A stretch of DNA of 64,000 bases from a virus (IMGVR_UViG_2548876794_000003:64001-128000); one strand, 5' to 3'. Counted from the stretch's first letter, positions 1 to 48,400 are shown. The notes: generated by a model not told the origin, from the sequence alone. Numbers and translations: made by a program.

Positions 1-208
1 CGTTTTCAAGAACCACCTTGCGAATTGTTACGCCGTCTTTTACTGCGCGGAATACTTCTTCAAGGTACGCTTTGATTTTGTTACCTTTAGCTTTTGGTAA
101 CAGGTTTACTGCTACAGTTGATAGTTCTGATTTAACGTAGTTTACTTCTGGTAATGCTAATACTGTTGTTGCTGCTTCTGTTACTGTTGCTTGTGTAGAT
201 GTTTTCAT
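1..208 (-). CDS. hypothetical protein, N-terminal part (runs off the window edge)
   Basis: ATG at 208 with SD AGGAG upstream; open frame MKTSTQATVTEAATTVLALPEVNYVKSEL... to the edge; not in the ORF track. Confidence 0.7.
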   Translation of the reverse strand, partial: MKTSTQATVTEAATTVLALPEVNYVKSELSTVAVNLLPKAKGNKIKAYLEEVFRAVKDGVTIRKVVLEN

Positions 209-460
209 GATATAATTTCTCCTGTGTAGATGCTTGCCTTGTTGCAAGTCATCTCTGACGCATGCTCAATATGCGTAGATGCTACCTATATGGTTAGTCA
301 TCGTTTCTCTTATGTAAGTAGTGGTGTTATAACCAGTTACTTACGTTGTAGTCTTCCAAACTACAACTTGTGAGCCTTTTATAAAGACTCGCCATTACAG
401 AAAAGAGTCCAATCTTTCCTATAATGAATCGTAATAAGTACGTCCAATACTTATTACATA

Positions 461-24900: not shown

Positions 24901-24952
24901 ATACGAAATCCGAGAAATCCGCAACCGCATTACTGTACAAGACGAAATCTAA
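21914..24952 (+). CDS. contractile tail sheath protein (1012 aa)
   Basis: LPGTLTE, VIVGTAFHGP at the N-terminus; LTQAGFVT, RRLSVKR, PFIGKPN, IRPVYEIREI at the C-terminus. Confidence 0.88.
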   Translation: MGLIENEALLPGTLTEVTSEYSYGYDTSQFGTTESIVIVGTAFHGPTGAAIAIYSPEHAEYMFGKGYDSNTKKEATLVPAIKDAYEKGCRTIYAVRVSGENAEKDYEFAVDSSLRLRMKAAFPTNDAKEYFLVYDNTAGAEKLKFYKPANRATIVEKRLGLVEAENAVLVNTIELANDYSLDSNSELSEVIDLLNDHQYNNVLRLSIVDESGVEVTTSSEEARRLTLGALLPGLYTIGRSNSICTPVTTLDYKLCIEDEDKPFKSFDGVVYKQIILNTDVSSDYPVFSASHAPLKEILNEVAIFTSAPFDFLETQGLVDRAFEKDNTDYEEVAISNFELYKKLGSGYATTAYAERRVKKDATGKVIKELAPRVKETPLTDANRVQEIPDGIYSVIQNLSTDYRVLAGVGADEEIKDRVPRAKDFQVVSPISANVFSSMIKATPIVNEDAIDNDFVKSYKFEIHEVEEEDTMTASIDSVYTDEVMEVLPLLSYTTQDELDKIKKMNIENGTRTLVKDNGTGKVNLFIYDENNGYRKFSNALLENKLVISDGKIYKGIATDGVVDFQEVAVGDDGFEVQTGETTSVKYQFVLGENNAHVYVFEVLAANLTQTVYADPAALAAGKVVTPLGDAETMFSENEEKTVIYAQSNYFEMNPVIVRSAYMDNLTIEELVEMLNGHSALNHIFTFDMTEAGMKEKDSYLSEIAEITAPDVENPATGEIAVVLFHESVELKEDREIVYNYSQYIPYKTSDNFARQLAQHATYTTLKTGTTHGVIGLKLQGDKSLKGVKAREERLMELDFDLHAKTKQGKPMIGRNSEPYPIGDNVSITEFQSDFIDEDNSKFTMNGAAAYAGMVTVLSKDQSSTNQPIALRSVNYTYSNYQLSRLTQAGFVTVKDTVTNGLVITDGVTMAQADDPMRRLSVKRVLSEVTKIIRAAGDPFIGKPNNDSNRNSLQTAIKSGLESIKGVLIDGYRFTLNTDRNTQKYSYIDIDYAIRPVYEIREIRNRITVQDEI

Positions 24953-30282: not shown

Positions 30283-33200
30283 ATGGAGGATAAACTGCGT
30301 GAAGAAAAGCAGCAGTCCCCATTCGACCACATCGTCTCCTATGGGACAGCAGCTCTATCTTTAGGATTTGGAGCTGCTGTTTTTAATAAAGAAGGCGGAT
30401 TGAAAATGGTGGCGAATGCGAGTACCGTATTAAAGCGCGCAACTGGTGATCTGCAGGAACAATTTGCACAGGTAGACCGCAGTAATTTTACAACGAAAGA
30501 TTTGAAGAATCTCTACAATCGTGCCTTCCACGATCAAACAGGTGGATTTAAAGGCGCTAAAAAATATATAGACGAGGGACACAACGCCCCCTCACTGCGA
30601 GTCGATGGTTCTAGTGGCGTATTGAACTCTTTACGACAAGTCGAGAACAAACTGGCCACGTTCGAAAACGACGCAAAGAATGGCTTCATCGAGCGTACTG
30701 TACTTCGACCACTTGCAAATAAACATAATGACCGTTACAAATTCGAAGCCGTTGAAGATAAGAAACGTTTGGACCAACTAATCTACTTCATGAATAAAAA
30801 CATCTCGAACAAAATGGCTATCTACAAGAAAGCCGACTCGTTAAAAATTGCGAATAAGATGGGCGGCCGTAGCCAAATTGATTCTATTTATGAAGAATTA
30901 AAATCAATCAAAACTGCGAAGGAGAAAAGTTATACTGTCGATAAAGAATTCGACCAAAAAATCCTGAGTGACCTTCGCGAAAAAGCCTACGACATTAATG
31001 CACTAGAACGTACGCATGGCACGATACGAAAGCCAGACAAGATGCTGTCACCAGAGCAAATGGTTACAGTTAAAGACGTCTTAGATAATCCAGAGCTCTA
31101 TCGTGAATCTATGTTGAGTAGGCGAGTGAAAGGCAGTAAAGAACCGCAAGTCATGCCAGCCATTCAATACCTGCAGGAAAAAATGCAAGATTTTACGAAT
31201 AGGGGAGAAGGAGAGCGTTTCGGACAATTGCTTATGGACCGCAGTGTTTTACGTCGTGATATAAAGACTAACGAGGTATATTCTCTGAAAGACTTCCACG
31301 ACTTGGTTGCAAACCCGATTGATGAATTTGGTACAACAATGATTGGTAAAATTTTAAAAGTATTCGATGTTAAGAAGCGATTCGAGCAACCATCATTCTT
31401 ACGGATAAATCCAGGCCCACAAACAATGGACGCCCTACTCGCTTCGAGCGAAGGAAGTAAAACCGCATCTATTAATAATACATATTTCCGTTTGTACGAC
31501 AGAACATATCGTCAAACAAATGATGGTTTAGAAGAAGTTGAAGCACTGAGAGATTCCTACTTGGTTTCTAAAAACGGTACTGTACGTTCATTGTATGGTG
31601 ATATGATTGGCGATCGTGGCCATCGTACGACAGATAGCAAGTGGCGAAACGCATTAGATATTGGCAAGACTTCGGGTATTACGTTCTTCGATATGATTGG
31701 CAACATCTCTGAATATGGTGGTTCAAATACAAACCCACGCGTTGCTATTGAATCTTTAGTGAAGAACGGACTCGATAATTTAAGCGAGCTTGCCACAGCA
31801 AAACAAACATACAAAGATGCTGCTGAAAGGTTAAAAGTCGTGAACGCTTCGACAACTGTGACTGACGAAGAGAAGGCAGCTTTATACGCAATGCGTGATG
31901 CAGGATTTGAAACGATTGATAAGTATGTAGAGCAATCACGTACTGTTTACCGATTTTATGATAAGAATGCACAGGCATCTAATAACGACACAATTAGACG
32001 TTTATTGAACACAGGAGGATTCGACAAGTCCGCAGAAGATATGCTCAAGATGCTTAACCAAGATGATGAATCGTTGTTACAGAACATCGTTACAGGTTAC
32101 AACGATTTTAATAAAGACAACTCTGCATTTTTAAATAAGAACGTATTATCGACGATGCGACGTTATGTTGAAAATCCAAAGACTGCCCTTGACCATGTAT
32201 CAATCAAGAACGACTCACAAATGACCGGTAAATTATTTGGTACGGAAAATCGTTCAAGTAACTTCATTGACGAACTTCGTTTAGAGATTGAAAAAGAAGC
32301 CTATATGCGACAGGCTCGTCATGTACGCACAGACGATGGGCAAGTAAACATTCGTGGACTAAGCGACTTAATTGGCGGTTCTGGTGCGCAATATGATCAA
32401 GTAAGGAACGCACAAAATGTAGCTGACTTCGCTACGTTCCAATCTTTAACAGGTGTTTATAAGGATGCCACTGACAACAAGTCTGTACAAGAATCTGCCG
32501 ACATGGCAGAACAAGCTATCAAGCTATTCGCTCGTCGTGAAGGTGATGACCAACGGAATGATATATCCGAACGATTAGTAAACAATGTATTAAACAAGAC
32601 AAACAAATTTGAAACAAGCTATGACATCCATATGCAACAGGAGAATATCGTAGAAGGTTTTGGTAACGATGCGTGGATACACATGAATAAGGCAATTTCG
32701 CCAATGGACTTGCTTCGAAACTTGAACGATAAGGAATTTAGAAAGTCATTCGTTAAGCAGTTTGTAGCTGGCCGTAATGATATGGAGAATGTGACAACCG
32801 CTACGATGATGCCATATTTCTTCCTAAATCGCCTAAATGATCCGCTTGAAAAAATCGGAGTAGGTTTGTCATCTGAATATCGCGGAAGCTCTGTAGACTT
32901 AATGCGTGGCATTGTAATGAAAAGAGCACTACCTATTGCAATGGGTATTACTGGCTATAACTACATGAACGACTTTTCGCAAGCAACAACAGGCGTCGGC
33001 ATTACAGAGTCGTTCTTATCGAACGCTGCGAACATTGACTTGGGTATGCGCGGTGTCGCTGATATAACAGGTGTTAGCGATTGGTTAAAAGATGAACGTG
33101 CTTTAAACCCAATTGCTCAATACCTATTCGGTGAAGAGTATATGGATAAAGATGAACGTGCTGACTACTATCAAAATGGTTATAGCGCAATGCGTAAAGG

Positions 33201-36200
33201 CCGTTGGTGGTCGTTCGGTTCATTAAATGAATTTAGAGGTAGCAAGGTTCAATACTGGCAACCTAATTTGTTACGTCGAGTAACCAGCGACTATCACGAT
33301 GAATCCTTGTATGATGGATTTCTTGATAAATGGAGCCACAGCTGGATGCCAACACCAACCAACCCACTATCTCCATTAAATGCGTTGATGGATCCATATT
33401 GGTTGGAAAACAAACATTACGAAGATCGACCGTATATGGTGTCGGGAAAAATGTTCACCGAAGAAACACCATGGGGACCACTGTTAAATGCGACAGTTGG
33501 TAACGTATTGAAACCACAAATACAGATGCACCAAGAACGATTGAACAGCGATTATGTCGATGTACGTGCCATTATTGAACGACGAAACAGAGAAACGATG
33601 GAGCGAGCTAATGGTGAAAATCGCAACCTTGCTCGATTCAAAGATGGTGCGATTGAAGCGGTAAACTTCACATCATATGATGCACCCACTGAATCACAAC
33701 GCATTGTTCGTATAAATCAAAGCAATGGTCAATCTGATGTCACAGCGATGAACTACGGTGCATTCACTGGCGTTACAACAGGTGAAGCGTATATGCGTCA
33801 AAAAGCAATTAGTGAAGATGCTGCAGGTGGAGGAGCTACTGGCGAATTCTTAACAGGCGTAGCAGAAGGAACCAACCAAAGGCTAGGTAACTCTGCATTG
33901 ATGGACTACGGTAGCAAAGCTGGCGGTGTTATGGACCTAATGAGCTCGATTGGCAACGGTGGCGAAATCAGTGTCGGTACTGGTTTAAGCTTCGCAGATC
34001 GTGCGGAAATTGAAGGTGCTGGTGGCAATGTTGTCGCAAAACTATTTTCAACACTACGCCGCGAAAGTAATGAATCCATGAATATCGTCAGTGACTTGAA
34101 CTATAACACGCTAATGAATACTCGTTCCTATCGGCCTAGTAACTCACACGTACGAGAGGGTGGTGTTGTAACAACAGAATCACTTTACAAAGCGAGCGCT
34201 CGTTTCGGTGATGGTATTTTGGATAATAAAGAAGCAATATCCGATTTGAAAGGCTTATCTGGCGGGGATGACATGATTGGCGAGCTGGCTTACTCTGCTC
34301 GTTTCATTACAGGTATTTATGGTTACGGTTCATTCTTAGCTGCAGGGGGTAGCGCTAAGAACAAAGTATCTGACGCAAGTGACATGACCAGTCCTATTCG
34401 TAGCTTCTGGGATGCAAACCTTGGCGGTGTTGGTGGTAACTATCTTGAAATCTTCCGTCGTTTTATTCCATCAAATAACTTCTTAGAAAACAACTTTAAT
34501 CCATTGATGAATACTATGCCCGACTGGATGCCAGATAAATATCGTTTTGGCGATCCGTATACAGCGCTCCCTAAAGGTGAAATGCGTATGCCGGGTAAAG
34601 GGTATGAATCACTTAACGAGCTGCATTCTGATCAGTATGGACGTTATGGAGCATTTGACCGATACAAAATACTTTCGGATATTTCGCCCGGTTCAGAAGA
34701 GTACAAGATTTGGCGTGATATTGCGAAGGAAACGGTCTCTAGTCCCGAACTAAAAGAAGAGATGGACCGTATTAACGATCGTGTCAAAAAGCAAAACGAG
34801 AACTATGACTTCTTCGATTATCAATTTTTAGGAAAATCCACTCGTAAAGAGAAAGTGCAAATTTCCGAAGTAATCGACAACAACTTCTTCAAAGTAGCAG
34901 GGGATGACAAAACATACAGATTAGCTGGTGTGTCGGTCACAAATAAAAACAAAAAAGACGACGCATTATCTTTAACTGATGGCACACGCGCAATTGACCA
35001 ATTCCTTGCACCAGGTCAAGAAGTCGTGATTTCACGAGACAAAGATACATTCGACGGCACCGACCAACAAAGCGGCGCTGTTAGTGCGGCGCTATTCATT
35101 AACGGTAAATCTGTTGGTAAAGAATTAATGGATATGGGGTATGCTGAAAAACGTGGTGACACGTCCGCTGCAGCTGCAGACAGTGTTTATTCTGCCACAC
35201 AGATTGCGCGTGGTAAGGCGTATGAAGCAATCGCCCATCTACCTATCCCTGTTTTTCAACAAAAATTCATGAAAGTACGAAATCCATTAGAATCGTATAA
35301 ACAAGAATTGGTGTACGGTACAAACTATACAAGTTGGAATCGCCCAATCGACAGTATCTTACTACCTGCTTTTGAACGTTCATTAATGAGTGACGGCGAA
35401 GTACTAATAGGAATTGGCGCAGCCGTAGCGAATCATCTCACTTATAAAATGACAGATGATAAAGCAAGCCGAGCTGTTGCCAATGTTGCGATGGCACTAT
35501 CTAATCGTGGTGCATTCATTGGTGGATTCTTAGCTAAAGGATTGAGCATACCAAACTCGCAAATTCGTAAAGCAGCCTTTGTTGGTGCTGGTGCGCAAGT
35601 TGCTGGCTACCTTTACACTCGTCAAGACCAACCGCTTCAAGAAGGCGTAATGGGAGGACTATTAGGTATGGGTGTTGGTCACTTATTGAAAGATATAGGC
35701 ATAAGAAAAGGCGGAGCAATTGGTGCCGCTACAGGCTTCCTTTTCGGTGGTATGAGTTCATCTGCTTTGAGTGACGACGCTTATGGCTTTGGCAACAAAT
35801 ACATTCCAGAACGAACTCGTGAAACTTGGGATATGCGTGAGTACTATGACCGCTTAGAATATGTTAAATACTCTGGTCTATTTGAAAAGGCTGCGCGTAA
35901 AGCGAAGCATAAAGAGCATATGGATATTGGGAAACTCGTAAAAGATTACGAGAAGCAGCGTGAAGAAAACCGTAAAGTAAATGAGCAACTTGGAGAATAT
36001 CGTCAAATCATCATGCAAGCTTACGCTCCGGGAAGTCAGCGTCGTGACCAACTGTTGAATGAAATTGATGGCAAGATGAATGTATTGAAAGAATCAGAAT
36101 TCAACATTGCAGTAGGCGACTACGCGAAATCAGCATTGATTTATAAACAAGCGATGGACTCTACCATCTATGGTCTAAAAGACGATGCTACGTGGTCTCA

Positions 36201-36729
36201 AATTGTACGTGCTACACCGACCAATGAGCGTGATCATTTTATGGCCTTCATGAAAGAAGCTAATCCTAAAAAACGTAAAGAGATATTAAAATATGTCTCA
36301 CCTTACGAAGCTAAGGTCTTGAAAACCGCTTGGGGTATGGAGACTGAAAAACAAGAATCGAATAGCTCTTACTTTGAACATCACCGTATGCCAGGGGCAA
36401 CATGGAGTGGGTGGCGTCCAGACAAAGACTTATCGGACATTCAAGTAAAAACTATACATAATGAAGGCCGATTGCTTTCAGACTTCGGATTCTTTGAATC
36501 ACAGCTACGTGATCCAGACGTTATCCGAGCAGACCAAGCTTCGCCTAATCAACCCGGTAGCGGCTTCCTACAGACGAAAATGGCAATGATTGCGACATTA
36601 AAAGGATATGGGCTAACTAATGTAAACGTAAACGTTGAGCCTAAAAAGGAAAGTGGTATGGAAGTTATCGCAAATGTGGCGAATATTACACAATACAATA
36701 TCCATAACGCTTTAACAAATTTACTATAA
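30283..36729 (+). CDS. giant virion protein (tape-measure position) with SNase-like OB domain and Gly-rich hydrophobic segments
   Basis: 2148 aa after the chaperones; EVIDNN...YRLAGV...INGKSVGKELMDMGYA near 34850-35150. Confidence 0.6.
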   Translation: MEDKLREEKQQSPFDHIVSYGTAALSLGFGAAVFNKEGGLKMVANASTVLKRATGDLQEQFAQVDRSNFTTKDLKNLYNRAFHDQTGGFKGAKKYIDEGHNAPSLRVDGSSGVLNSLRQVENKLATFENDAKNGFIERTVLRPLANKHNDRYKFEAVEDKKRLDQLIYFMNKNISNKMAIYKKADSLKIANKMGGRSQIDSIYEELKSIKTAKEKSYTVDKEFDQKILSDLREKAYDINALERTHGTIRKPDKMLSPEQMVTVKDVLDNPELYRESMLSRRVKGSKEPQVMPAIQYLQEKMQDFTNRGEGERFGQLLMDRSVLRRDIKTNEVYSLKDFHDLVANPIDEFGTTMIGKILKVFDVKKRFEQPSFLRINPGPQTMDALLASSEGSKTASINNTYFRLYDRTYRQTNDGLEEVEALRDSYLVSKNGTVRSLYGDMIGDRGHRTTDSKWRNALDIGKTSGITFFDMIGNISEYGGSNTNPRVAIESLVKNGLDNLSELATAKQTYKDAAERLKVVNASTTVTDEEKAALYAMRDAGFETIDKYVEQSRTVYRFYDKNAQASNNDTIRRLLNTGGFDKSAEDMLKMLNQDDESLLQNIVTGYNDFNKDNSAFLNKNVLSTMRRYVENPKTALDHVSIKNDSQMTGKLFGTENRSSNFIDELRLEIEKEAYMRQARHVRTDDGQVNIRGLSDLIGGSGAQYDQVRNAQNVADFATFQSLTGVYKDATDNKSVQESADMAEQAIKLFARREGDDQRNDISERLVNNVLNKTNKFETSYDIHMQQENIVEGFGNDAWIHMNKAISPMDLLRNLNDKEFRKSFVKQFVAGRNDMENVTTATMMPYFFLNRLNDPLEKIGVGLSSEYRGSSVDLMRGIVMKRALPIAMGITGYNYMNDFSQATTGVGITESFLSNAANIDLGMRGVADITGVSDWLKDERALNPIAQYLFGEEYMDKDERADYYQNGYSAMRKGRWWSFGSLNEFRGSKVQYWQPNLLRRVTSDYHDESLYDGFLDKWSHSWMPTPTNPLSPLNALMDPYWLENKHYEDRPYMVSGKMFTEETPWGPLLNATVGNVLKPQIQMHQERLNSDYVDVRAIIERRNRETMERANGENRNLARFKDGAIEAVNFTSYDAPTESQRIVRINQSNGQSDVTAMNYGAFTGVTTGEAYMRQKAISEDAAGGGATGEFLTGVAEGTNQRLGNSALMDYGSKAGGVMDLMSSIGNGGEISVGTGLSFADRAEIEGAGGNVVAKLFSTLRRESNESMNIVSDLNYNTLMNTRSYRPSNSHVREGGVVTTESLYKASARFGDGILDNKEAISDLKGLSGGDDMIGELAYSARFITGIYGYGSFLAAGGSAKNKVSDASDMTSPIRSFWDANLGGVGGNYLEIFRRFIPSNNFLENNFNPLMNTMPDWMPDKYRFGDPYTALPKGEMRMPGKGYESLNELHSDQYGRYGAFDRYKILSDISPGSEEYKIWRDIAKETVSSPELKEEMDRINDRVKKQNENYDFFDYQFLGKSTRKEKVQISEVIDNNFFKVAGDDKTYRLAGVSVTNKNKKDDALSLTDGTRAIDQFLAPGQEVVISRDKDTFDGTDQQSGAVSAALFINGKSVGKELMDMGYAEKRGDTSAAAADSVYSATQIARGKAYEAIAHLPIPVFQQKFMKVRNPLESYKQELVYGTNYTSWNRPIDSILLPAFERSLMSDGEVLIGIGAAVANHLTYKMTDDKASRAVANVAMALSNRGAFIGGFLAKGLSIPNSQIRKAAFVGAGAQVAGYLYTRQDQPLQEGVMGGLLGMGVGHLLKDIGIRKGGAIGAATGFLFGGMSSSALSDDAYGFGNKYIPERTRETWDMREYYDRLEYVKYSGLFEKAARKAKHKEHMDIGKLVKDYEKQREENRKVNEQLGEYRQIIMQAYAPGSQRRDQLLNEIDGKMNVLKESEFNIAVGDYAKSALIYKQAMDSTIYGLKDDATWSQIVRATPTNERDHFMAFMKEANPKKRKEILKYVSPYEAKVLKTAWGMETEKQESNSSYFEHHRMPGATWSGWRPDKDLSDIQVKTIHNEGRLLSDFGFFESQLRDPDVIRADQASPNQPGSGFLQTKMAMIATLKGYGLTNVNVNVEPKKESGMEVIANVANITQYNIHNALTNLL

Positions 36730-36754
36730 GGGAGCTTCGGCTCTCTTTTATTTT
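36728..36754 (+). terminator. intrinsic terminator with cUUCGg loop
   Basis: AAGGGAGC-TTCG-GCTCTCTTTTATTTT. Confidence 0.8.
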
Positions 36755-36837
36755 AAGCGAAACTATTTCATTTTGTAGATAATAGGATAAAATACAGGAT
36801 GCATTTTAAGATGCACTATTTAAAAAGGAGGGTTTTG

Positions 36838-39800
36838 ATGGTACAAGAATCATTTTGGGAAAACAGTTCCATTAAACGATTTAATGGAAAGCGACAGAAA
36901 GCATTGATTCAAGCTCGTTCAGAGAAGTCCGCACAGGATGCACTCGGCAACACACAAGCTGGTTACAAGGCTTTAGTAAACGAACACATGAAAGCGACTA
37001 GCTTTATGTATGCCAACCAGATTAAGGATGTTGTGTTAGATAACAAGTCACCTTATAAATTCTTAATGAACACTGGTAAAACAGCATTAAAAGAAAATCC
37101 AGATGTGCTTAATTCATATGCAGATTTCTTCAATGCAGCAGCGTCCACTTTTACAGTAAAGGAGAAAAGCGGACAGAAGTTCATGGCTGAAAACGTAGAG
37201 GTCAACAAGATTTTTACGATTAATAACCAATCCCGAGGTACAGAGACAGTTTCACTTAAAGATGAAGAAGCGGCATGGAAACGTATGCAGAAAGGCGCTT
37301 ATACCGTATTTGACTTTGAAACGTTCGGTGGGCGCAATGCGTTCGGTGTGCAAACATTGGACCAACTTACAGAATATAGTTTCGAAACCTTTGACAATAT
37401 TAAAGCGAAGAAGTCGTCGAATCGTATCGAGGGCGTTGTTGGGATTACCGATGCGAAGAAAGATGAATTTATCAAAAAATTCATTGGTGGCTCACGAGAC
37501 ATACAGGACACACGTAATTTAAATGGTGGATTAATTGACTTCACTCGCTTCACTGAATTAGAGCAAATTCAATTGAATACTTTAGCTCGTATGGGTAGTA
37601 AAGAAACAACAATTTCAAATGTGGACGAACAATTCAAGGATGGTTTTAACGGGCGCTATCGCGTAACTAAAACAATCGCCAATGAAGATGTAGAAATTTC
37701 AAAAGAGAACGTACTGCGTGGGGTTGAACGTCTACATGATATTGGTACTGTACAGCGCGCAGGTTCAGTGAATGGCTTACAAGTTTGGGAGAAAGATTTA
37801 GCTGATGCGATGTCAATTGCAACGAAAGGCGACCATGTATTAACTGGTCACAACGTAGCGCAGGCCGACGTTCCTTGGTTTAACCAAACATTAACTCGTG
37901 GATCGAAGCCATTTAGGGACTATTACTTTAAAGAGTTGCAAGGCGAGTTGGTTAAAACAACTGGAGGAGCTGTATTTGATTTACTTCCACTTGCACGTAT
38001 GGCCGACTTGAATGGCGCACTCTCTCGTGAGATTGAATCAAATCCAAACGCTCAGAAGCGACTTGGCGAAATGGGTTCTACTGCATTGCAACAAGAAACA
38101 TTGGTTGCAACGACACTATCTAAAAACGTCATCGAAAATACGACGAACGCACCACATACAGCTGCAGAAGATACCCGCCTATTTAATGAGATTATTCGAG
38201 GGGGGCGCATCAATTCTTCTGATAAAGAAACTCTTGTCGAAAAAGCTTTCCGTATGGCTAAAATGAATATGACAAACGAAGCGATACCTTTGACAGCTGC
38301 TCCATCTGAACAGCAAGTGAAGGAATCTAATGGCACAACGAAAAATATTGTAATGAACGCACGAAAAGGTCTGTTCAATTATAAAGGTTTATCTGGTGTC
38401 ATTGGTTATAATGTGGACCAGATTGATGGACGTATCCGTACTTCTAATGGATATGAAATTTCTCCAGATGGCTCAGTTAAGAGTGGATTTGGTGATGCTA
38501 TCATCAAGAAAGATGTCAGCTACGTTGCACAAGGCTTACAGAAATTAACGACAGGCAATGACGATGGCATGCTAGACATCATGAAGCGTATGGGGAAAAC
38601 CGACGCACATATGGCAGAAGGTGAGCTTTACAAGCTGGTTCTTTCTCCAGTACGTGAGGGGAACATTGAACCTAGCGCTAGTACGGCATCTGAAAAAACG
38701 AACATGAAGATGAATATGCCTGTAGCTCTGCTAGGTTCCCGCGATGAAATTCAACGTTATCTAAATGGCAATATGATTGCCTTTGCTAATGCGACCGAAC
38801 AATTGGACGGCAGCGTCAAGTTAGATCCGATTGAAAGTGGAATGAAGGAACTGGCGAATTACAACACAGTTACACATAAAGTAGAAGAAACGACGCCTTT
38901 AGACGTCATTAAACGCGGTGAAAAGAAAGCATTGAATGATTCATTTAACCGTAGTATCACTGAAAGTGAACTGCCGAAGATTGAGCGATACATGAAGTTC
39001 AGCGACACTGTAAAAGAATTTGCGAAGGAAAAACATATCGACATTGGTTCAGCTCGTAATGCTGTGATGGATGGCGCTATGGAAATCGCTTATCAAGTTT
39101 CTCGTGGTCGAACAATTACGAAGGATATGCAAGATATGGTTGGGCTTGATGCCTACAATATTCTTTCCAATAACGGAAAGCATGCACTTGATTATCGTTC
39201 ACTCGACAAGGCTGCCGCTTCACTAGACTTTATCGAAAGCGCACGCGCACCATTAAATCAACTGATTCAAGGGATTAAAGGCAAAAAGTTAGGCTCCTCA
39301 AAAGAAGAGCAGTTCGTATTCAAACAAGTGATGCAAGGAATTACTGCAGAATTGAATGATAGCTTTGTGCAAGCGAATGATCCGAAATTCAAAGCAGCAA
39401 ACAAACCATACATAAGTGTCCCTTCATACGAAAAGAATGTCATTCAATTATCTCGCCCAAGCTCGATGCGCGAGAAGAATGGTCGTGTAATGGGGCTTGA
39501 TACGCAAGAGAAAATGCTGCGTATCAATTTAGATGACTCACCAGAAACAAAACTGATTAACGCTGTGACAAAAACACTTCGTCGTAAAAGCGACGGTGCA
39601 ATCAAGAGTAGATTACTTTCACTAGCGGAGGAAAATAACATCGCATTAGATGGCACAAGTGAAATGAATCGTTATCAAGTAGCTCAAACTATTGTTGATA
39701 AGATTCACACGCAGCGTAAAGTCGATCCGCTTCTATTCGCACAAAGCGGTGTGTCAGCGAACGACTTTTCTAAAGGATCAGTAATACTTAGCAGTGAAGC

Positions 39801-42800
39801 ACATGCAGATAAGATTTCCTCTTACATTGACGACTACCTATCAAAATACCAGAAGGGGACGGTTGTCGATCTAAATCATTACTTTACAAAGTCGGGCGCA
39901 CTTAATAAGAATACGTTGATCAATGACGTTGTTGACAACTTCTTAATGGACTCAAATTACAATTTAAAAGACCATGGTTTTAATGATGAACAAGTTAAAT
40001 TTCTGCAGGATTCACGTAATCTTCGCCGCAAAGATTATACGAAATATGCGGAGGAGCTAATCAACGGTGTCCATAAGTCAGGCGCAAGCTTAGTATTCGA
40101 TGCAGATAAAGGCATCTTCGGTATGACTAGAGGTGGAGAGTACACAAACCTAGCCAATATCGTAGCGCGTGACCGATTCCATAATGGTGTGTTCTATACG
40201 CAAGTCGGCAAAAACCGATTACGCACAGGTACTTACTTAGGAATGTTTGGCGCCGGTGACAAAGATGAATACGCTTTAAGTGATGTAAAAGCTGTGTCTG
40301 GACTCGGAAAATCAATGGATGCTGCGCCAGGGAATCTGGACTGGAGTATTAAACGAGCAATCGAGAATGACGATGATCCGACGAAGAGTGTGGAGCGATG
40401 GTTAAAAAATATTAATAGTTCATTGCGTGAAGGTGCAAGTGTTGATTATTTCAATGAGAAAGATATGAAAGCCCAAGGGCAATTGAATATCTCTAAGTTG
40501 ATAGATAATCTAGGCAAAGTAAAAGGCATTGAGAACATGACTGCTGACGACGAAAGTGAAATTAAAGAACTTATTTCAAGAGCTCGCAAGGACAATTTCA
40601 GTTTTAGTAAGATGACCGATTCTACAAATATGTACATGCAGAAATCAATTAGTCCATTGCTACAATTCCTAACACAGGGCGTGAAAGACGAGTGGGTAAA
40701 AGACTCTGTAAAACGTATCGGAAACCGCGTGAAATCGAGCGCCAATGAAAAAGGGAATTATGGCGTAATTGACTTTCAAACAGAACTTGAAATGTTCAAT
40801 AATGCTTCTCGTGGTATTGATGCGCAAAACAGTTTTATTTCATTTGATGAAGATACAGCGCGTAAGGCCCTATTAACACCAGATGAATATACCGGTGAAT
40901 CGCTTGATAAGCGTGTGGGGATTGGTTCCAACTTGCGTACAGAATTAGGGGCTGCTAGAGACAACATGCTTTCAGAGGAACACACCCAAAAACGCCGTTC
41001 ATCATTTGAGCTTCAACGTGCTGCCTACTCACCTGCAGAGCTACATATGAAACTAAAAGAGGCTTATTTAGCAACAGACGATCAAGCGGAACGCACATCT
41101 ATTCAGAAACTAATGAATATCGGTAACGTGACAGAGGGGGCTGCTGTGATGAACTCACGAGTAGCCGATGCGATTATTCAAGGGTATGACAAACAGAAAA
41201 TAGATTTCTCAAAAGACCTGTTCTCACAAGAATTGAGCGCTGACGTAGAATCTATGACAAAAAAGGAATCGAAAGCCTATAAGAAAAGGATGGACAACAT
41301 CTCAAAAATGGCTCCTGTGTTTAAAGACAAGGGCAATCGCGGTTTCGATTTTAATTACGGAAAAGGTTACTATGTACGTCATGGTGAAACGCTCGCAAAT
41401 GTTCGTTCCGAATACGGCAACAATGTGTCTCCAGTAGCAGCGAAGTACGATGGCTTTGCTCGTTTCGGCTTGTTCACACGAGATGGTGCTCTTGTTTCGG
41501 CAAAAGATGCACAGGAGTTTCTACGCGAACAAGCTCGTAAAAAGCAAGTAAATATCAGTAACATTCAAGAGATGATTGATTTCGCTAAGAATTACTACGA
41601 CACAAAAATGTATGTTGATAAGCTAGACATGACAACATATCGTAAAATCCAAGAAGATAATCTTGAAAAACATATGACAAGTTTTACTTATCAATCATTA
41701 GGCGCCTTAGATGACCACAGTAAACCGTCACAAGGAATTGGAGCAGCATTAGATAACTTAGGCTTAAACCATTTAAAAGGTCGTACGCTTCGTCCAGAAT
41801 TCTTTAACGAGCTACTGTCTGGTGAAGCTTATGACAGTGGTGTACTAAAGACTGCAGCAAAAGGCGGCATGGGTTATCAAAAAGCAATTCAATCGGCTGG
41901 CTTTAAAGATGAAAGTGAATTCAAGCGTCAGCTAGAGAAGGAGCGTCACTTAGCCGGTGACATCCTGCAACAAGTAACAGGAGCAGACGCAATCGTTCAC
42001 TCGGATGATGTAAGCCACAAAAACGCTGGTGCTCGTATCAAATCTGCAATTAATGATATGCACTACAACCAATTAAACGCAGTCATGGACGAGCAAGGCT
42101 TGGCACGAGCTACGCCAGAAGCTATCCGAGAAGCGTCTCAACGAGTCGTTGATGCAGTGGGCGATGCCTTCGAAATCAACGGAAAAGATGGATTGTTTGT
42201 AGATAAAAATAACCGTATAGGATTGACTGGTGGCTTCAACTACTACAACGGCGATGGCGTAAATGTAAACCGGTTAAAAGAAGCATATGATGCGATGATG
42301 CCTGGCACTGATAAACCAGAAAATCAATTTGATAACATCGGGGCTTCTAACGGTAAGGTATCACGCCATGGTTACAATCTAATTAACGACACAACCAACT
42401 TCCAAGGTACAGGACGTACAGAAGTATTGGATGACACAGAGATTAATCGTAATAAAATAGCGATGAAATCAGGATTAAAAATGACTGACCGAGAATTGAA
42501 TATGTTAGAGTTACAACGATACGATAAAGATGAATTAAGCTCTATTCGTTCCGCAATGAATGATGACGCACTATTCAAACGTGCCTTTGGCCATGTATTG
42601 AATGACAATATGGAATTAGCCGACGGCGCGCAAGACATGAAAGTACTTGGACGATATACCGACGAAATCCGTCTAAACCAATTTGCTTCTGCGGGAGATG
42701 CATTATTGCTAAATGCTGACGGTAGCCAAGCGATGCAAAATGTCGAGAGCAACCTCATTAAGTCAGCTAATGCGCTACAAAAACAAAGTGGCGGTGCCGT

Positions 42801-45429
42801 TTCGTTAGAATCAGCAAAACAATATCACTCTGTTGTTAGTAACACGCAAGCGATGCGGTTCAACAATGGCACATTGTCCTTGAATGATTTATTAGAAGAA
42901 GGTAAATCTACTGCCGATAAAAAAATGAACTTCAAAGTAGTTAGCATCGGAGACCTAACTGTATCAAACGGCAACGATGGTGAGATCATTATGAAGGATG
43001 GTAGCTCTGTTTATAACCAAAATGTAGTGATTGATATGAAAGATAAATATTTAGGTGGCGTACCAGAGCGCATGGGTAATCGTTACTTAGCTATTGGTGC
43101 TGTACCGACCTCTGTAATTGGAGATGAAGTGTTAGACAAAAATCCTCACAAAACAATCAATTCAATCGTTTCAGCTCGACAAGCAATTATTGATGGCGAT
43201 GCTGGAACAGCCGAAGCAATTGAACGGAAGAAAGAATTAATCGTTGAAAAAGCAGGGCAATTGAACGATGACTTGTCAGAAGTAGTATTCGGCAAAAAAG
43301 GTGCTATCGGGCAACTAAGCTCTTATCGTGCGCAGCACTCTGCATTCGGTAAGGCGATGCTGCAAGATACTGCTCATGCACTGAATACATACAGTGAAGG
43401 TATGTTCCCGATGCTAGATAACGTTGAAATCGACGGCAAAAAAATCCGAGACCATTATGCGCAAGGTGGTTTAATGGATGTCAAAGTATTCGGTATGGGG
43501 CATGCAGAACGACTTGGCTTATTTGACCAAGAGTATCTGGACCACATCGGCTCTACAAAAGAAGATGTCATCAAGCAATTAGAAGGTGGCGTACTTGGTT
43601 TATCTCAACGTCATCCGGCTGTATACGAAGGTACAAAGCGTTCAACATACTTTGTACTGAACCGTTCGCTAGGCGATGAAGTCATCGAAAGTGCTGCGGG
43701 TGCATTGACTGCTAAAACCGATGCCGATGGTGATAGCCCTGGTAGTGAGCTTTCATCTTACACAGATAAGAAAACAGGACGCCGAGTGGACTCATTAGAG
43801 TATGCATTAAAAGGAGGAGCTGCCGGTGGGCAATTCTCTGCAGACATTAACGAAGCTTTCCAACAGCAAAAATCAAGTAACTATATCAACGCGTATGTTC
43901 GTAACCCACACTTCCAATCGAAGCTAGATAAAGCGAACGCAGAAGCATATGATATTATTCGTGACATTGACTTAGGCGAACGAGGTGAAGCAACCGCTGC
44001 TATGCAAGATGTAGCATGGGGTAAAGACGGCTCGGAGTTGGGCAAACTCCGTCCATCGTTACCACACTTATGGAATGAAAAAGAACGTGCAGAACTAATG
44101 GACGCTAAATCAGACCTACGCAATAAAGCATTGGCTTCTTACGCAACTGAACATAACTTATCGACAGCAGACGCTCTTACTCAACTACGTGGATCTGAAG
44201 AGGGTGGCAGAAGTTTTGAACTACACGAGGACTTTATCTCTCGACAAAAACAAGTAATTCGAGATACTGGTGATGCTGCGCAAGCGGATCTATACGAACG
44301 TGCTATGATTTATGAAGATAAATCCGACAGTTTCAAAGCCGCACAGATGGGTGCATTAAAACGACAAAGCGCTGGTGAAATTAACCTTAGCATGTACAAG
44401 GCTCGTAAGCTGCGTAACCTCTCTATTAACAATGGTTATACGAATGATGAATCACGATTCCTTGAGCATGTATTCGAAGCTTCCGAAGAAGCCTTCCTAT
44501 CTCCGAAGCATAGTGATAAAATCATCGTTGAAAATCCAGACGTGATGGACCAATTCAAACGAGCGTGGGGCTCTGCTACCGGTACACCTCAAAAAGGTGA
44601 TGAAGCGGGGACAGACCTACTGAAACAATACTTCCGCGACCAGACATCAACTCGTATGCGTTGGGAGAGTGAATCTAAGGAAGTTGTTGCGACGAAGATG
44701 GACCGCGCTGCGGATATGATTCAAGAAATCTTTAATAAGTCGGAGAACGGAAAAGATTTCAATATGTTCTTAGGTGCCGTTGGTCAATGGAAAAACGGTA
44801 TTCCAACATCACGAATTGAAGATGCAATGATTGGTATGAACTCATCATCTATGATGTCGCAAGTATATGGTGCGCTCTCAGAAGGCAATGGCGACCTTGG
44901 ATGGGAAACCCGCGACCTTCAAATGCGTGAGCGTATAGAAGGAGCTTTCAGTGACTCAAGACCGCTTCAAGGTAACGACTATATGCCACCAACAGTCCAG
45001 TCGCTTCGCAGCGAGTTTTCTGATAAAATGGGTGGCGTTAAAAACCTACTAAGTAAAGTTAGTGGTAAACAAGCGGTATTTGGTATTGCTGGTATGGCAG
45101 GAATGTCAATGCTAGGCGCATTCGTTGGCGGTAATCCTTCTGAGCCAACAGGACAACATGCAGCGCAAGCCCCATCAGCCGGTGGGTATGAATCAATGCC
45201 GTTATCAGACGGCACTGGATCGGTAAGCCAAATTCCTTCTGGTCAAGGTTATGTCGTGAATGTCAACGCACAATCACCAAAAGGACAAGCACATGCACAA
45301 GAAGCAATTCGACAAGCCGTTCGACAAGCAAGCGGCGGTTCTGTCAATATCTCTATGACAACGCGAAACGAATACAACAACTTGGACAACGAAAGCGTCA
45401 CAAGTATCCTGTCAAATGCGTTTAATTAG
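36838..45429 (+). CDS. single-chain two-barrel (beta+beta'-like) RNA polymerase with N-terminal DEDDh exonuclease, probably virion-packaged (2863 aa)
   Basis: Exonuclease: FDFET / GHNVAQAD / HTAAED. RNAP motifs in order: GNVTEGAAVMNSR, K-x7-K, DAIVHSDDVSHKNAG, GLKMTDRE, FGKKG...YRAQHSA, QRHP, TDADGD, ALKRQSAGEI. SD AAGGAGG before ATG 36838. Confidence 0.8.
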   Translation: MVQESFWENSSIKRFNGKRQKALIQARSEKSAQDALGNTQAGYKALVNEHMKATSFMYANQIKDVVLDNKSPYKFLMNTGKTALKENPDVLNSYADFFNAAASTFTVKEKSGQKFMAENVEVNKIFTINNQSRGTETVSLKDEEAAWKRMQKGAYTVFDFETFGGRNAFGVQTLDQLTEYSFETFDNIKAKKSSNRIEGVVGITDAKKDEFIKKFIGGSRDIQDTRNLNGGLIDFTRFTELEQIQLNTLARMGSKETTISNVDEQFKDGFNGRYRVTKTIANEDVEISKENVLRGVERLHDIGTVQRAGSVNGLQVWEKDLADAMSIATKGDHVLTGHNVAQADVPWFNQTLTRGSKPFRDYYFKELQGELVKTTGGAVFDLLPLARMADLNGALSREIESNPNAQKRLGEMGSTALQQETLVATTLSKNVIENTTNAPHTAAEDTRLFNEIIRGGRINSSDKETLVEKAFRMAKMNMTNEAIPLTAAPSEQQVKESNGTTKNIVMNARKGLFNYKGLSGVIGYNVDQIDGRIRTSNGYEISPDGSVKSGFGDAIIKKDVSYVAQGLQKLTTGNDDGMLDIMKRMGKTDAHMAEGELYKLVLSPVREGNIEPSASTASEKTNMKMNMPVALLGSRDEIQRYLNGNMIAFANATEQLDGSVKLDPIESGMKELANYNTVTHKVEETTPLDVIKRGEKKALNDSFNRSITESELPKIERYMKFSDTVKEFAKEKHIDIGSARNAVMDGAMEIAYQVSRGRTITKDMQDMVGLDAYNILSNNGKHALDYRSLDKAAASLDFIESARAPLNQLIQGIKGKKLGSSKEEQFVFKQVMQGITAELNDSFVQANDPKFKAANKPYISVPSYEKNVIQLSRPSSMREKNGRVMGLDTQEKMLRINLDDSPETKLINAVTKTLRRKSDGAIKSRLLSLAEENNIALDGTSEMNRYQVAQTIVDKIHTQRKVDPLLFAQSGVSANDFSKGSVILSSEAHADKISSYIDDYLSKYQKGTVVDLNHYFTKSGALNKNTLINDVVDNFLMDSNYNLKDHGFNDEQVKFLQDSRNLRRKDYTKYAEELINGVHKSGASLVFDADKGIFGMTRGGEYTNLANIVARDRFHNGVFYTQVGKNRLRTGTYLGMFGAGDKDEYALSDVKAVSGLGKSMDAAPGNLDWSIKRAIENDDDPTKSVERWLKNINSSLREGASVDYFNEKDMKAQGQLNISKLIDNLGKVKGIENMTADDESEIKELISRARKDNFSFSKMTDSTNMYMQKSISPLLQFLTQGVKDEWVKDSVKRIGNRVKSSANEKGNYGVIDFQTELEMFNNASRGIDAQNSFISFDEDTARKALLTPDEYTGESLDKRVGIGSNLRTELGAARDNMLSEEHTQKRRSSFELQRAAYSPAELHMKLKEAYLATDDQAERTSIQKLMNIGNVTEGAAVMNSRVADAIIQGYDKQKIDFSKDLFSQELSADVESMTKKESKAYKKRMDNISKMAPVFKDKGNRGFDFNYGKGYYVRHGETLANVRSEYGNNVSPVAAKYDGFARFGLFTRDGALVSAKDAQEFLREQARKKQVNISNIQEMIDFAKNYYDTKMYVDKLDMTTYRKIQEDNLEKHMTSFTYQSLGALDDHSKPSQGIGAALDNLGLNHLKGRTLRPEFFNELLSGEAYDSGVLKTAAKGGMGYQKAIQSAGFKDESEFKRQLEKERHLAGDILQQVTGADAIVHSDDVSHKNAGARIKSAINDMHYNQLNAVMDEQGLARATPEAIREASQRVVDAVGDAFEINGKDGLFVDKNNRIGLTGGFNYYNGDGVNVNRLKEAYDAMMPGTDKPENQFDNIGASNGKVSRHGYNLINDTTNFQGTGRTEVLDDTEINRNKIAMKSGLKMTDRELNMLELQRYDKDELSSIRSAMNDDALFKRAFGHVLNDNMELADGAQDMKVLGRYTDEIRLNQFASAGDALLLNADGSQAMQNVESNLIKSANALQKQSGGAVSLESAKQYHSVVSNTQAMRFNNGTLSLNDLLEEGKSTADKKMNFKVVSIGDLTVSNGNDGEIIMKDGSSVYNQNVVIDMKDKYLGGVPERMGNRYLAIGAVPTSVIGDEVLDKNPHKTINSIVSARQAIIDGDAGTAEAIERKKELIVEKAGQLNDDLSEVVFGKKGAIGQLSSYRAQHSAFGKAMLQDTAHALNTYSEGMFPMLDNVEIDGKKIRDHYAQGGLMDVKVFGMGHAERLGLFDQEYLDHIGSTKEDVIKQLEGGVLGLSQRHPAVYEGTKRSTYFVLNRSLGDEVIESAAGALTAKTDADGDSPGSELSSYTDKKTGRRVDSLEYALKGGAAGGQFSADINEAFQQQKSSNYINAYVRNPHFQSKLDKANAEAYDIIRDIDLGERGEATAAMQDVAWGKDGSELGKLRPSLPHLWNEKERAELMDAKSDLRNKALASYATEHNLSTADALTQLRGSEEGGRSFELHEDFISRQKQVIRDTGDAAQADLYERAMIYEDKSDSFKAAQMGALKRQSAGEINLSMYKARKLRNLSINNGYTNDESRFLEHVFEASEEAFLSPKHSDKIIVENPDVMDQFKRAWGSATGTPQKGDEAGTDLLKQYFRDQTSTRMRWESESKEVVATKMDRAADMIQEIFNKSENGKDFNMFLGAVGQWKNGIPTSRIEDAMIGMNSSSMMSQVYGALSEGNGDLGWETRDLQMRERIEGAFSDSRPLQGNDYMPPTVQSLRSEFSDKMGGVKNLLSKVSGKQAVFGIAGMAGMSMLGAFVGGNPSEPTGQHAAQAPSAGGYESMPLSDGTGSVSQIPSGQGYVVNVNAQSPKGQAHAQEAIRQAVRQASGGSVNISMTTRNEYNNLDNESVTSILSNAFN

Positions 45430-45440: not shown

Positions 45441-48400
45441 ATGGCATCTACAAAGACTGCTAAAGAATTAAAAGAGCTTTATGGCACGATGAATAAAGAA
45501 AATCTCATTCTAACAGATGAAGATTTCTTCTTGCCGTCCATGGGCGACATGTACGTCAATTCAGTCGATAGCGCACGATTAAATGATTTTGCCGCTTCAC
45601 TGGAAGGCAATGCAGGTAAAGACAAAATGACGAAAGCTTCGTTCTATTTGGAAAATCCATTTGCGAGCGAACTTGGCTTCTATGAAAAGAATCACCTTAT
45701 TTTTGTAAAAGCAAAGCCATTGATTACAACGCAAGATGTACTTGCGGGAAAAGTCGATGGAGACACACTGACCTTCAAGGTCAGTGCTGTCGTTGGTGAT
45801 GACGATGGCAAAGCAAAGTCAAAGATTCAAGAAGAGGTAAAACGCGGTACTGAAAAAATCATCAACGCTGTTAATGACAAGGCTTCATTAGATTTGATGG
45901 ATCGACTAGAGAGCTTAGGATTAGATTTAAGTGATCCTAAGAATAGCGAGTACAAAAAATATTTACGTGAATCAAGTGAGCAAGAATTTAAAATTCGTTT
46001 CCTTGGAATCAATGCACCAGAGGTTTCAAAATGGACACATATGTCGAATATTAATGCGGATTATTTAAAAGTCGAATTTAAAGAATACGGAGACATCAAG
46101 AATGATGAAGCACATTATTATTGCCGACGCTACGAAGGCCGCAAAGATAAAGAAGTAATTGCCTTCGTAACATTGAGTGATGCAATGAGCCATGACGACG
46201 GAATTGACTTGGGTGAAATGTTTATCGAAACGAATAGCGAATATAGTCCATTAACAAAGAGTCGTATTAAATCAGAGAAAAAATTAGACTTCTATTATTT
46301 AAATACAGTAGGTGAGACTGAGAAGAAACGTCGTGAACAGGGTGATTTAGCGCAACGACGCGTAATCAAAGCAATCAATGCTTCTGCAGATGGTTATGTT
46401 TACCTAATGTTAAACACTTCTACTTTGAAGATGGCCACAGACCGCTATGCTTCTATCTTCGATGATGTGACAGCACTGAGTAAAGGTCCTATTAATAAAT
46501 TAAAATACATCTTTAGCCAACTTGTTAGCTACAACGATTATTCATATAAAGGCTATAATATGTGGGGAACTGACGCATATAATCGTTTCCTTGGAACACC
46601 ATATGTCATTACAGACGAAGGTTACGTGAACTTAGCTAAATATGTGATTGCTGGTGACGACGAGAAAATGGTTGACGTATTTCCAGACTATGGCGATACA
46701 CCTTGGTCTGGCGTAAACAATAACTATGCCGATAAGTATTTCAATTTAGCCAGTTATGATTTTGACAACTACGCTCTATATGATGCGACGAAGGTTGCTG
46801 GCGATGATATTGATGACCGCAGAAAGGTACAAGAAGAAATCTTCGGTCGTTCATTTGATGAATTGCGAGAATGGACTGTCGGTATTGGTGACACATTCTT
46901 CTTCGTTCCACCAACAAGTATCAATGTCACGAATGAAGTATCGAATGAACGCCTACGCACAATGCGTTCTAAAGGCTCGATGGTTAAAGGTGGCACCAAG
47001 GTAGATAAGTATATCGAGCTGGACTTGTATTTCAATGACGAGCGCGGTATCAATGGCTACCCTTGGGAGACAACTTTACCAAACGGAGATAAAACTACAT
47101 ATTATATGAATGGATTACGTGCTTTAATTTCGCAATTCAAGTTCACGCCATTTCTACCAATTGAAAATCGTTACATTAATCAGATGTGTAATATCGAAGC
47201 GGTCAATTTACTAACGTTAGAAATCTCTACAGTTGAGGGTTTCCCTCGAACATTAGTAGCTCGTGTCGTACTACAAGCATTTGATTGGCGTACTTATATG
47301 CCAGATTTACCGGCAAACATTCAAATGGATGACCAGCAAGATGAAGATGAATACTTCAACATTTTCGCTAAATCAATCGACTACGCTACGATGCGCTGGT
47401 ATTACCAACGTGCTATTCGAAGAGGGAATAAAGTAGATGGTCTTGATGCAAATTCCATTAAATACATAGAAAAAACATTGGGTAGCAATACTGCATTACA
47501 ACCAATGCACTTTGAAGATTCCGGTGTGAAGTTTTACGTTGCAAACGAAGATTACTTGAAGAAAATGCTTCAAGTGAAAATCAATGCACTTGATACGTCC
47601 AAAACATACGCAGTCTTAACAGATCTTGAAAAAGAACTGTTGGTCGACTTAGCTCCTTTAGGCAAAGCTGCAGATGATGCGCTTACTGACAAAATGATGG
47701 GGCAGTACACAACGAGCTTGATCGATAAATTAAAACCAGCCAAAGATGGCCGCCTACCTGTATTAACTGCAGAGAAAGCAAGCAAAGGGTTGGTTTATGG
47801 AAAAGCGAAACTGGGTTCTCCTAAGATCATGCGAGTTGAAACAAACGGCTTTATTTTTGATGACGAGTACTTCCCAGAATATATGAATCTTGTTCAATCG
47901 AGAATGGTTGACGCATTCAAGGATGTTCAAGGGAAAGAAAAGATTCTAAACGATGTGACACCTTACTACAAAGTAGGAGATGACTACATTACGTTTGGTG
48001 TGTGTCTGGACTTGTATATGCCAGGTTTTACAACACCTGCTCAAATTACAAACCTTATTGCGGAAGCATCTACCGCTACAGGAGTGAGCCGAGATAAATT
48101 TAATTTAGTAGATGAAAAACTATATATCAGTTATCGCGTTGAATTAAAAGATAAAGTTGGTGTAAAAACAGGTATTGACCGATTCATTACAACGGATTAT
48201 GACGGAGTTATCCAATATCCTGCTTTACCAAACACAACGAAGTCGGGCTACGATTATCAGATGTTAGCTTATGCTCAACAATATAAAAAAATCAAAGACA
48301 GCGATGAAGACACCCCGAACGAAGAAGTTGCTGATACAGCGAAGAATGTAGATTACATTAGTCCGTACACTTTGACTTATGATCAATATGAGATGGGCCA

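Follow-up and report, generated by a model that had tools for sequence, protein, structure and literature searches.

RNA polymerases (RNAPs) that are delivered by the phage particle allow the viral programme to start independently of the host enzyme. To our knowledge only a few types are known, namely the polymerase of N4, the multisubunit enzymes of phiKZ and AR9, gp66 of crAss-like phages and gp96 of P23-45. As far as we know, two-barrel polymerases are thought to require no separate editing nuclease. The closest precedent for the protein described here is gp96 of Thermus phage P23-45 (also P74-26, G20c and TSP4). P23-45 gp96 is a two-barrel RNAP of the virion that is fused to the tape measure and has a non-virion RNAP as its partner (PMC10770324). 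This virion RNAP was proposed to reside at the entry pore and to transcribe the pre-early genes, including that of the second RNAP (PMC10770324). Another large single-chain enzyme, gp66 of the crAss-like phage phi14:2 (PDB 6VR4), transcribes efficiently from single-stranded or denatured DNA but only poorly from double-stranded templates, and QDE-1 is cited there as showing the same template preference (10.1101/2020.03.07.982082).

Links between two-barrel polymerases and hydrolytic enzymes have been described in other systems. In some Bacillus jumbo phages an HD hydrolase is fused to the beta subunit (PMC7824862), and in archaeal PolD the two-barrel DNA polymerase DP2 works with the proofreading subunit DP1 (PMC4996933). 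The protein studied here likewise pairs a two-barrel polymerase with a dedicated 3'-5' exonuclease, whereas PolD has its nuclease on a subunit of its own and makes DNA. The nuclease of PolD is of the Mre11/calcineurin type and not of the DEDDh type.

Here we analyse a window of 64,000 nucleotides, bases 64001-128000 of IMGVR_UViG_2548876794_000003, a viral record of 178,960 bp that was judged ~78% complete. The original prediction, made from the sequence of the window, was that an intact DEDDh exonuclease is fused to an RNA polymerase, in an architecture not known as a characterised one. Proofreading or trimming of transcripts, processing of genome ends on entry and destruction of defence nucleic acids or oligonucleotide signals were suggested as possible functions. 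A full-text literature search agreed with the point on the architecture: no paper was found on a phage tail protein that combines a two-barrel RNAP with an exonuclease.

A giant gene in the tail module of a contractile-tailed phage

The window contains the structural module of a contractile-tailed phage (Table 1). Three giant genes of 2,148, 2,876 and 2,724 codons lie on the + strand, and the middle one encodes the fusion protein. The gene order is sheath, tube, chaperone-like genes, first giant gene, fusion gene and hub/lysin giant gene. BLASTP detected no paralogy among the three giant proteins of the window. The residues of the fusion protein are counted throughout from base 36799, the beginning of the open reading frame (ORF). 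Because of a hairpin and a strong Shine-Dalgarno sequence upstream, and since the resulting length of 2,863 aa equals that of a database copy of the protein (P0002), the sequence suggests that the true start is residue 14 (ATG at 36838). A contig of 248,626 bp carries a protein of the same 90%-identity cluster, and the genome of the source phage is therefore probably ~250 kb in size.

Table 1. Features of the fusion locus and its surroundings. Positions are counted from the first base of the window.
Feature	Position	Strand	Remarks
Large terminase	7949-9217		Contractile-tail structural module
Portal	11155-12792		Contractile-tail structural module
Major head protein	16496-17728		Contractile-tail structural module
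Sheath	21914-24952		Contractile-tail structural module
Upstream giant gene	30283-36729	+	2,148 aa; Gly-zipper segment, Pfam Gly-zipper match weak
Terminator-like hairpin	36728-36747	+	Between first and second giant genes; 1 found against 0.1 expected in shuffles
Full fusion ORF	36799-45429	+	2,876 aa (P0001)
Shine-Dalgarno sequence AAAGGAGGG	36824-36832	+	Strong; precedes ATG at 36838
Fusion gene (middle giant gene) from likely start	36838-45429	+	2,863 aa; ORF list and translation
Predicted DEDDh (DnaQ-like) 3'-5' exonuclease domain	37246-38268	+	Residues ~150-490
ExoI, VFDFETFG	37306-37329	+	D172, E174; motif from residue 170; D and E invariant in 39/39 relatives
ExoII, GHNVAQAD	37846-37869	+	N352, D357; motif from residue 350; N in 37/39, D in 38/39 relatives
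D394 in VFDLLPLAR	37978-37980	+	Retained in 39/39 relatives
ExoIII, HTAAED	38155-38172	+	H453, D458; H in 39/39, D in 38/39 relatives
Predicted single-chain two-barrel RNA polymerase core	41236-44118	+	Residues 1480-2440 as modelled
Basic pair of beta-like barrel, K1616 ... E1623-K1624	41644-41670	+	Invariant in 33-sequence alignment A2
beta'-like barrel, R2271-H-P ... D2308-A-D-G-D	43609-43734	+	Metal-binding triad; R, P and three Asp invariant in A2
Conserved C-terminal module	45016-45426	+	Hydrophobic segment and GY-x-(I/V)N motif; common to tape-measure-slot proteins, Bacillus jumbo phages
Gly-rich hydrophobic (membrane) segment	45070-45132	+	Residues 2758-2778; Kyte-Doolittle scan
Downstream giant gene, hub or lysin-like	45441-53615	+	2,724 aa; phrog_20474, E 7e-183

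The sheath relates the source phage to the Bacillus phages 0305phi8-36, vB_BceM_WH1 (WH1), Edson and vB_BauM_KLEB27-3 (KLEB27-3) and to a Moorella phage. The order of genes around the fusion gene is found again in 0305phi8-36, WH1 and KLEB27-3, which places the fusion gene in the tape-measure position. In BLASTP searches the first giant protein matched WH1 gp096, which in turn matched gp145 of 0305phi8-36, a virion protein detected by mass spectrometry, and the downstream giant protein matched WH1 gp094. The protein between them in 0305phi8-36 is gp146, a 'hypothetical tape measure protein' that was found in virions by mass spectrometry (PMC2147016). It shares with the fusion protein its slot between homologous giant genes and the C-terminal module, which is the best-conserved region in the alignment of the fusion family. 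HMM matches to this module were located at the C-termini of WH1 gp095 (6.9e-9), KLEB27-3 gp034 (3.7e-5) and 0305phi8-36 gp146 (3.9e-5). The match to gp146 agrees with an earlier description of the 0305phi8-36 lineage, in which conservation among the tape-measure-slot proteins is limited to the last 60 residues (PMC2147016). We therefore read the fusion protein as a multi-domain occupant of the tape-measure slot, in a large phage that has a contractile tail and is of the 0305phi8-36 type.

Just upstream on the other strand, at 61701-64247 of G000 (- strand), lies an ORF of 848 aa with a DWDMD motif, a candidate for a second, non-virion RNAP. It had an embedding score of 0.92 to RdRP (PF05183) clusters in the Atlas, and searches with PF05183 and against PHROGs and the PDB gave no match. 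In 0305phi8-36, gp99 is a clear PF05183 gene (PMC2147016).

The N-terminal domain is predicted to be an intact DEDDh exonuclease

The ExoI, ExoII and ExoIII motifs that had been noticed in the window are all present in the fusion ORF. ExoIII contains the H-x4-D arrangement (H453, D458) that defines the DEDDh subtype, and D394 presumably corresponds to the 'iDTl' motif of DnaQ-type enzymes, which it resembles in our own reading. All five catalytic residues are retained in 38-39 of the 39 relatives, despite a mean pairwise identity of the domain of only 23%. In the family alignment the domain is conserved as well as the polymerase active site. Judged by this pattern of conservation, the domain is intact, as originally predicted, and under purifying selection.

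The domain is poorly visible to standard annotation. Neither Pfam nor PHROGs gave a significant family for the whole fusion protein or pieces of it, the Pfam search with P0001 gave no significant match to PF00929, and phmmer searches of PDB sequences with the single exonuclease domain or the whole protein gave no match. These negative results explain why the domain has stayed unannotated. Among the relatives, PF00929 matched 2 of 37, with a best E of 0.0013. A weak AcrIIA4 match at residues 276-306 (E 0.002-0.019) was below our cut-off and was taken as chance. When a profile of the domain was compared to PDB chains, the best match was the TREX1 homologue Plex9.1 (E 9e-5), with all three motifs aligned, followed by weaker matches to RNase T, TREX2, ExoI and MrfB.

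An AlphaFold model built with a 37-sequence alignment reached a pLDDT of 88.7 and a pTM of 0.88. The RNase H-like DEDD fold is thus predicted with high confidence, and the model could be superposed on solved exonucleases, with the highest score for Pol III epsilon (12.2; rmsd 3.0, 170/175 residues), followed by ExoI (12.1), the Cas2-linked DnaQ domain (11.3), TREX2 (11.2), the exonuclease domains of DinG and PolC (11.0) and TREX1 (10.6). RNase T, Orn and REXO2 were also among the Foldseek neighbours. Of the ESM Atlas neighbours among the matches listed, 9 of 10 belong to PF00929 and the remaining one has no common family. The best match in BFVD was a fragment, a UniProt YprB RNase H-like domain protein (E 1.3e-8). 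Its motifs and its modelled fold mark the domain as a true member of the DEDDh exonucleases, and its active site is intact. It differs from the DnaQ-like DEDDh enzymes of PF00929 (Pol III epsilon, ExoI, TREX1/2, RNase T) in three respects: its sequence has diverged beyond the reach of the Pfam model, it has an insertion of ~180 residues between ExoI and ExoII, and it is embedded in a tail-module protein of 2,863 aa together with an RNAP.

The same polypeptide carries a two-barrel RNA polymerase core

As had been proposed, the exonuclease shares its ORF with RNAP motifs, and these belong to a genuine two-barrel RNAP in the same polypeptide. The DADGD motif begins at residue 2308 (nt 43720), in frame with the exonuclease motifs, and includes D2308, D2310 and D2312. 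R2271-x-P and D2308-x-D-x-D together resemble the NRxP...NADFDGD segment of beta', and both were retained in all relatives except one, P0008, which was left out of alignment A2 with its 33 sequences. The best PDB profile alignment of the beta'-like barrel was to the NADFDGD region of phiKZ gp55, with an E of 0.46 that is not significant alone. A model of the core (residues 1480-2440) had a pLDDT of 84 and gave 35 Foldseek matches at E<=1e-3, all of them RNAP largest subunits among the matches listed. The best match was beta' of the AR9 nvRNAP (E 9.8e-5). Moreover, the model aligned with QDE-1, P74-26 gp62 and P23-45 gp96 over model residues 126-889, which include both barrels. According to its motifs and model, the chain holds a two-barrel polymerase in the order beta then beta', and RNA synthesis is its predicted activity, with DNA synthesis as a further possibility.

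The fusion protein differs from P23-45 gp96 in several respects. Sequence similarity between the two proteins is absent, and in the Foldseek comparison the nearest structures to the fusion core are beta' subunits of the cellular type. Within the fusion protein the polymerase is close to the C-terminus, whereas it is N-terminal in gp96, and the source phage has a contractile tail, unlike the P23-45 system. No exonuclease is mentioned for gp96 (PMC10770324). Compared to phi14:2 gp66, both are large single-chain two-barrel RNAPs and both genes are flanked by giant neighbours; gp66 is packaged in the virion, whereas packaging of the fusion protein is presumed, on the indirect grounds of the structural annotations in WH1 and KLEB27-3 and of the mass-spectrometric detection of its slot-mate gp146, which lacks the RNAP.

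The fusion is widespread and the two domains stay together

An exhaustive phmmer search with residues 130-520 retrieved 38 proteins. Nearly all were 2,660-3,150 aa long, with the domain in the same place near the N-terminus, and most had a DxDxD near residue 2,300. Searching from the RNAP end gave 7 proteins, 5 of them new, and the exonuclease motifs were intact in all 5. Altogether the same architecture is present in over 40 clusters (50% identity), in genomes of ~180-250 kb, and the relatives repeat the layout of three giant genes. As judged from these sequences, the linkage of exonuclease and polymerase is obligate across the family, in which the domains never occur apart.

A tblastn search of 50,697 phage records with the fusion protein gave no match at 1e-5, a word-indexed search of proteins retrieved nothing besides the query, and no related locus was found with the single exonuclease domain. 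The cultured members of the family surfaced through profile searches only.

It could be argued that the domain has lost its activity and persists as a structural remnant, or that the fusion is an artefact of assembly or annotation, and the lack of significant matches in Pfam and PHROGs would fit such a view. However, the near-identical protein has 12 members in its 90% cluster, from NCBI, ENA and Logan assemblies, one of them on the 248,626-bp contig, and the architecture recurs not only in the many clusters but also in three cultured phage genomes. The retention of the catalytic residues at such low identity, at the level of the polymerase active site, speaks against a remnant. We consider either possibility extremely improbable, and the concern that the fusion might be an assembly chimera can be set aside given the many independent assemblies.

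P0008 deserves a separate comment. In this protein the ExoII and ExoIII residues are lost, and so are R-x-P, DxDxD and the lysines, and the frame of 2,692 aa is still open. The loss of both active sites in a frame that is still open may indicate a joint use of the two activities and an additional structural role of the protein.

Cultured relatives and gp146 of 0305phi8-36

WH1 gp095 (2,515 aa) matched the exonuclease profile with an E of 8.5e-9 and the polymerase profile with an E of 1.9e-14, and contains FDIENIG, GQNINTYD, HMALQD and DHDGD. For KLEB27-3 gp034 (2,434 aa) the respective values were 5.4e-10 and 2.1e-12, and its motifs are YDTEILG, GYNVHNFD, HFGLSD and DYDGD. The copy of Edson is 94% identical to that of WH1. 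The annotations of the members of WH1, Edson and KLEB27-3 go no further than 'virion structural protein', 'hypothetical protein' or 'structural protein', with structural annotations for those of WH1 and KLEB27-3.

The situation in 0305phi8-36 is different. With default filters the profile of the fusion family did not match gp145 or gp146, and once the filters were removed, scores were confined to two parts of gp146, the exonuclease-like stretch and the C-terminal part. Candidate exonuclease motifs follow each other in order in gp146 (LDIETTG, GQNVADAD, LDTL and HLARAD). This stretch reached 13.0 bits, whereas the highest score among 500 shuffles was 8.7, and the hhalign probability was only 4%. 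It is located in the middle of gp146 (~1200-1700), unlike the N-terminal domain of the fusion protein, and gp146 has neither a DxDxD nor a match to the polymerase profile. A relationship of these motifs to the fusion domain is therefore taken as a lead only, drawn from sequence comparison.

Possible functions of the nuclease

Both enzyme folds, their catalytic residues, their linkage across the family and the place of the gene in the tail module are firm, and on this basis a mechanism can be proposed; to the explanation as a whole we assign a probability of roughly 0.6. From N- to C-terminus the protein consists of the DEDDh exonuclease (~150-490), ~950 residues, the RNAP (~1440-2440), the membrane segment and the C-terminal module. 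We infer that it is packaged with the tail and ejected upon infection, and that its C-terminal part would anchor it at the entry pore. There, on the model of P23-45 gp96, the polymerase would transcribe the earliest phage genes as the DNA enters, and the candidate second polymerase, RdRP/YonO-like and encoded just upstream, may take over later. Since its link to the polymerase would keep the nuclease at the pore, the nuclease might act in cis, on 3' ends that form at this site. We tentatively favour the 3' ends of the incoming linear DNA as its target, which could be trimmed or converted to annealable single-stranded terminal repeats. We lean, not decisively, towards DNA rather than RNA as substrate, because the best structural and profile neighbours of the domain are DNA exonucleases (epsilon, ExoI, TREX1/2, Plex9.1, PolC and DinG).

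The same neighbours count against a nuclease that serves the RNA product, that is, one that trims, proofreads or rescues the nascent or backtracked 3' end in place of Gre/TFIIS-assisted cleavage. There is an analogy in the DEDDh ExoN of coronaviruses, which serves the viral RNA polymerase. That exonuclease and polymerase are never apart in the family, and that the sole member with a dead exonuclease (P0008) has a dead polymerase too, would be expected from such a role, and RNase T, Orn and REXO2 are among the structural neighbours. On the other hand, the accuracy of a few early transcripts ought to be of minor importance, two-barrel enzymes are themselves capable of RNA cleavage in the active site, and no model places the nuclease site near the RNA 3' end across the ~950 residues between the domains. 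In addition, gp146 apparently keeps exonuclease-like motifs without DxDxD, which is a weak argument in the same direction. We place a role at the RNA end second, after one at the DNA ends, and regard it as somewhat doubtful.

A different task at the DNA end would be resection of the entering genome end, such that the polymerase receives a single-stranded template. The preference of phi14:2 gp66, and of QDE-1 as cited with it, for single-stranded templates would suit this idea (10.1101/2020.03.07.982082). However, a 3'-5' exonuclease removes the template strand of genes that are read inward from the end. In the complete genome of 0305phi8-36, all annotated genes that follow the right terminal repeat towards the interior, including the RdRP-like polymerase gene, are read in the inward direction, so the template strand would be lost. 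Resection for this purpose would work only for outward-facing genes or for entry at a nick, and we regard it as quite improbable.

The nuclease could also be an injected weapon that is merely carried by the polymerase protein and attacks host or defence nucleic acids, such as 3' ends of host DNA or RNA, retron or other single-stranded DNA, or linear oligonucleotide signals. Its delivery would precede all phage gene expression, gp146 may bear a nuclease without a polymerase, and extra hydrolases are known from other phage polymerases, for instance the HD domain on beta of Bacillus jumbo phages (PMC7824862). Yet one or few tethered copies per infection are poorly suited to bulk degradation, and the coupled loss in P0008 points to a task in common with the polymerase, which makes a weapon unlikely. 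To a similar degree we doubt that the domain is an editing or cleavage module of the two-barrel polymerase, or that the 'RNAP' extends or repairs the entering nucleic acid in a manner like PolD. If the former were true, this would be the first two-barrel polymerase with a separate, fused 3'-5' exonuclease that acts on its own product, and the module could enable the injected transcriptase to proofread, or to be rescued from backtracking, independently of the host.

Implications for phage-delivered polymerases

The fusion is a further and widespread type of two-barrel phage RNAP, presumably delivered by the tail. Standard annotation misses it despite its occurrence in more than 40 clusters. These results also suggest that the label 'tape measure' in the 0305phi8-36 lineage covers an enzyme carrier. 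In all members of the type the polymerase is joined to a nuclease, and this nuclease equals the polymerase active site in its degree of conservation. Cultured Bacillus phages carry the protein (WH1, Edson and KLEB27-3), so the question of the nuclease is directly testable. Since no editing nuclease is expected for a two-barrel polymerase, the task of this one, be it at the ends of DNA or RNA or on molecules of the host, would be informative about the first seconds of infection.

Start and transcription of the giant genes

The exonuclease-RNA polymerase (RNAP) protein lies in the middle of three giant genes, in ORF 36799-45429. Its real start is likely the ATG at 36838, 13 codons within this ORF. 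Since a terminator-like hairpin follows the first giant gene and a strong SD then precedes this ATG, the giant genes may form separate transcription units.

Features in the window, in the whole record (G000) and in Bacillus phage 0305phi8-36 (L002)
Feature	Position	Strand	Remark
Terminator-like hairpin with T-run	window 36728-36747		3′ of first giant gene
Strong SD AAAGGAGGG and start	window 36824-36840		upstream of ATG 36838
848-aa ORF	window 1-247, running upstream to G000 61701	-	DWDMD at its end
759-aa ORF	G000 59262-61541		comes after 848-aa ORF
Terminase ORF, 422 aa	window 7949-9217		large terminase family profile match
Third giant gene, 2,724 aa	window 45441-53615		
DEDDh-like motifs of gp146	L002:35697-37319		residues about 1180-1720

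Insertion and database neighbours of the exonuclease domain

Pfam weakly matches the anti-CRISPR AcrIIA4, below the cut-off, to a stretch of the exonuclease domain's insertion (residues 276-306, counted from 36799; window 37624-37716; E 0.002-0.019); this match is probably due to chance. The exonuclease model was matched in BFVD by the UniProt viral proteins A0A8S5RKK9 and A0A7R7G2L5_1 (one a fragment of 1,009 aa, the other the initial piece of a long protein) with E-values of 1e-8 to 1e-7. One of these carries the automatic name 'YprB ribonuclease H-like domain-containing protein', and the superfamily had therefore already been flagged automatically at least once.

Other genes of the phage

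Residues 1944-2404 of the third giant protein match phrog_20474 ('endolysin'; E 7e-183), and the protein is homologous to gp094 of Bacillus phage WH1. It probably serves in the tail as a hub or as a protein that digests the cell wall. The 848-aa ORF showed an embedding similarity of 0.92 to RdRP/YonO-type polymerase clusters and no match in Pfam PF05183, PHROGs or PDB; together with the 759-aa ORF it may represent a split second polymerase. The large terminase gene looks interrupted, because the 422-aa ORF covers only positions 381-612 of the family profile.

Relatives of the exonuclease-RNAP protein

The 'tape measure' protein gp146 of 0305phi8-36, verified by mass spectrometry, shares a C-terminal module with the exonuclease-RNAP family, and harbours in order the DEDDh-like motifs LDIETTG, GQNVADAD, LDTL and HLARAD. 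However, gp146 lacks DxDxD. In the relative P0008 (2,692 aa), the ExoII and ExoIII aspartates were lost jointly with the RNAP R-x-P, DxDxD and lysines, while the frame is still open at full length. P0008 looks like a catalytically dead version of the exonuclease-RNAP protein, with a role that is perhaps purely structural.
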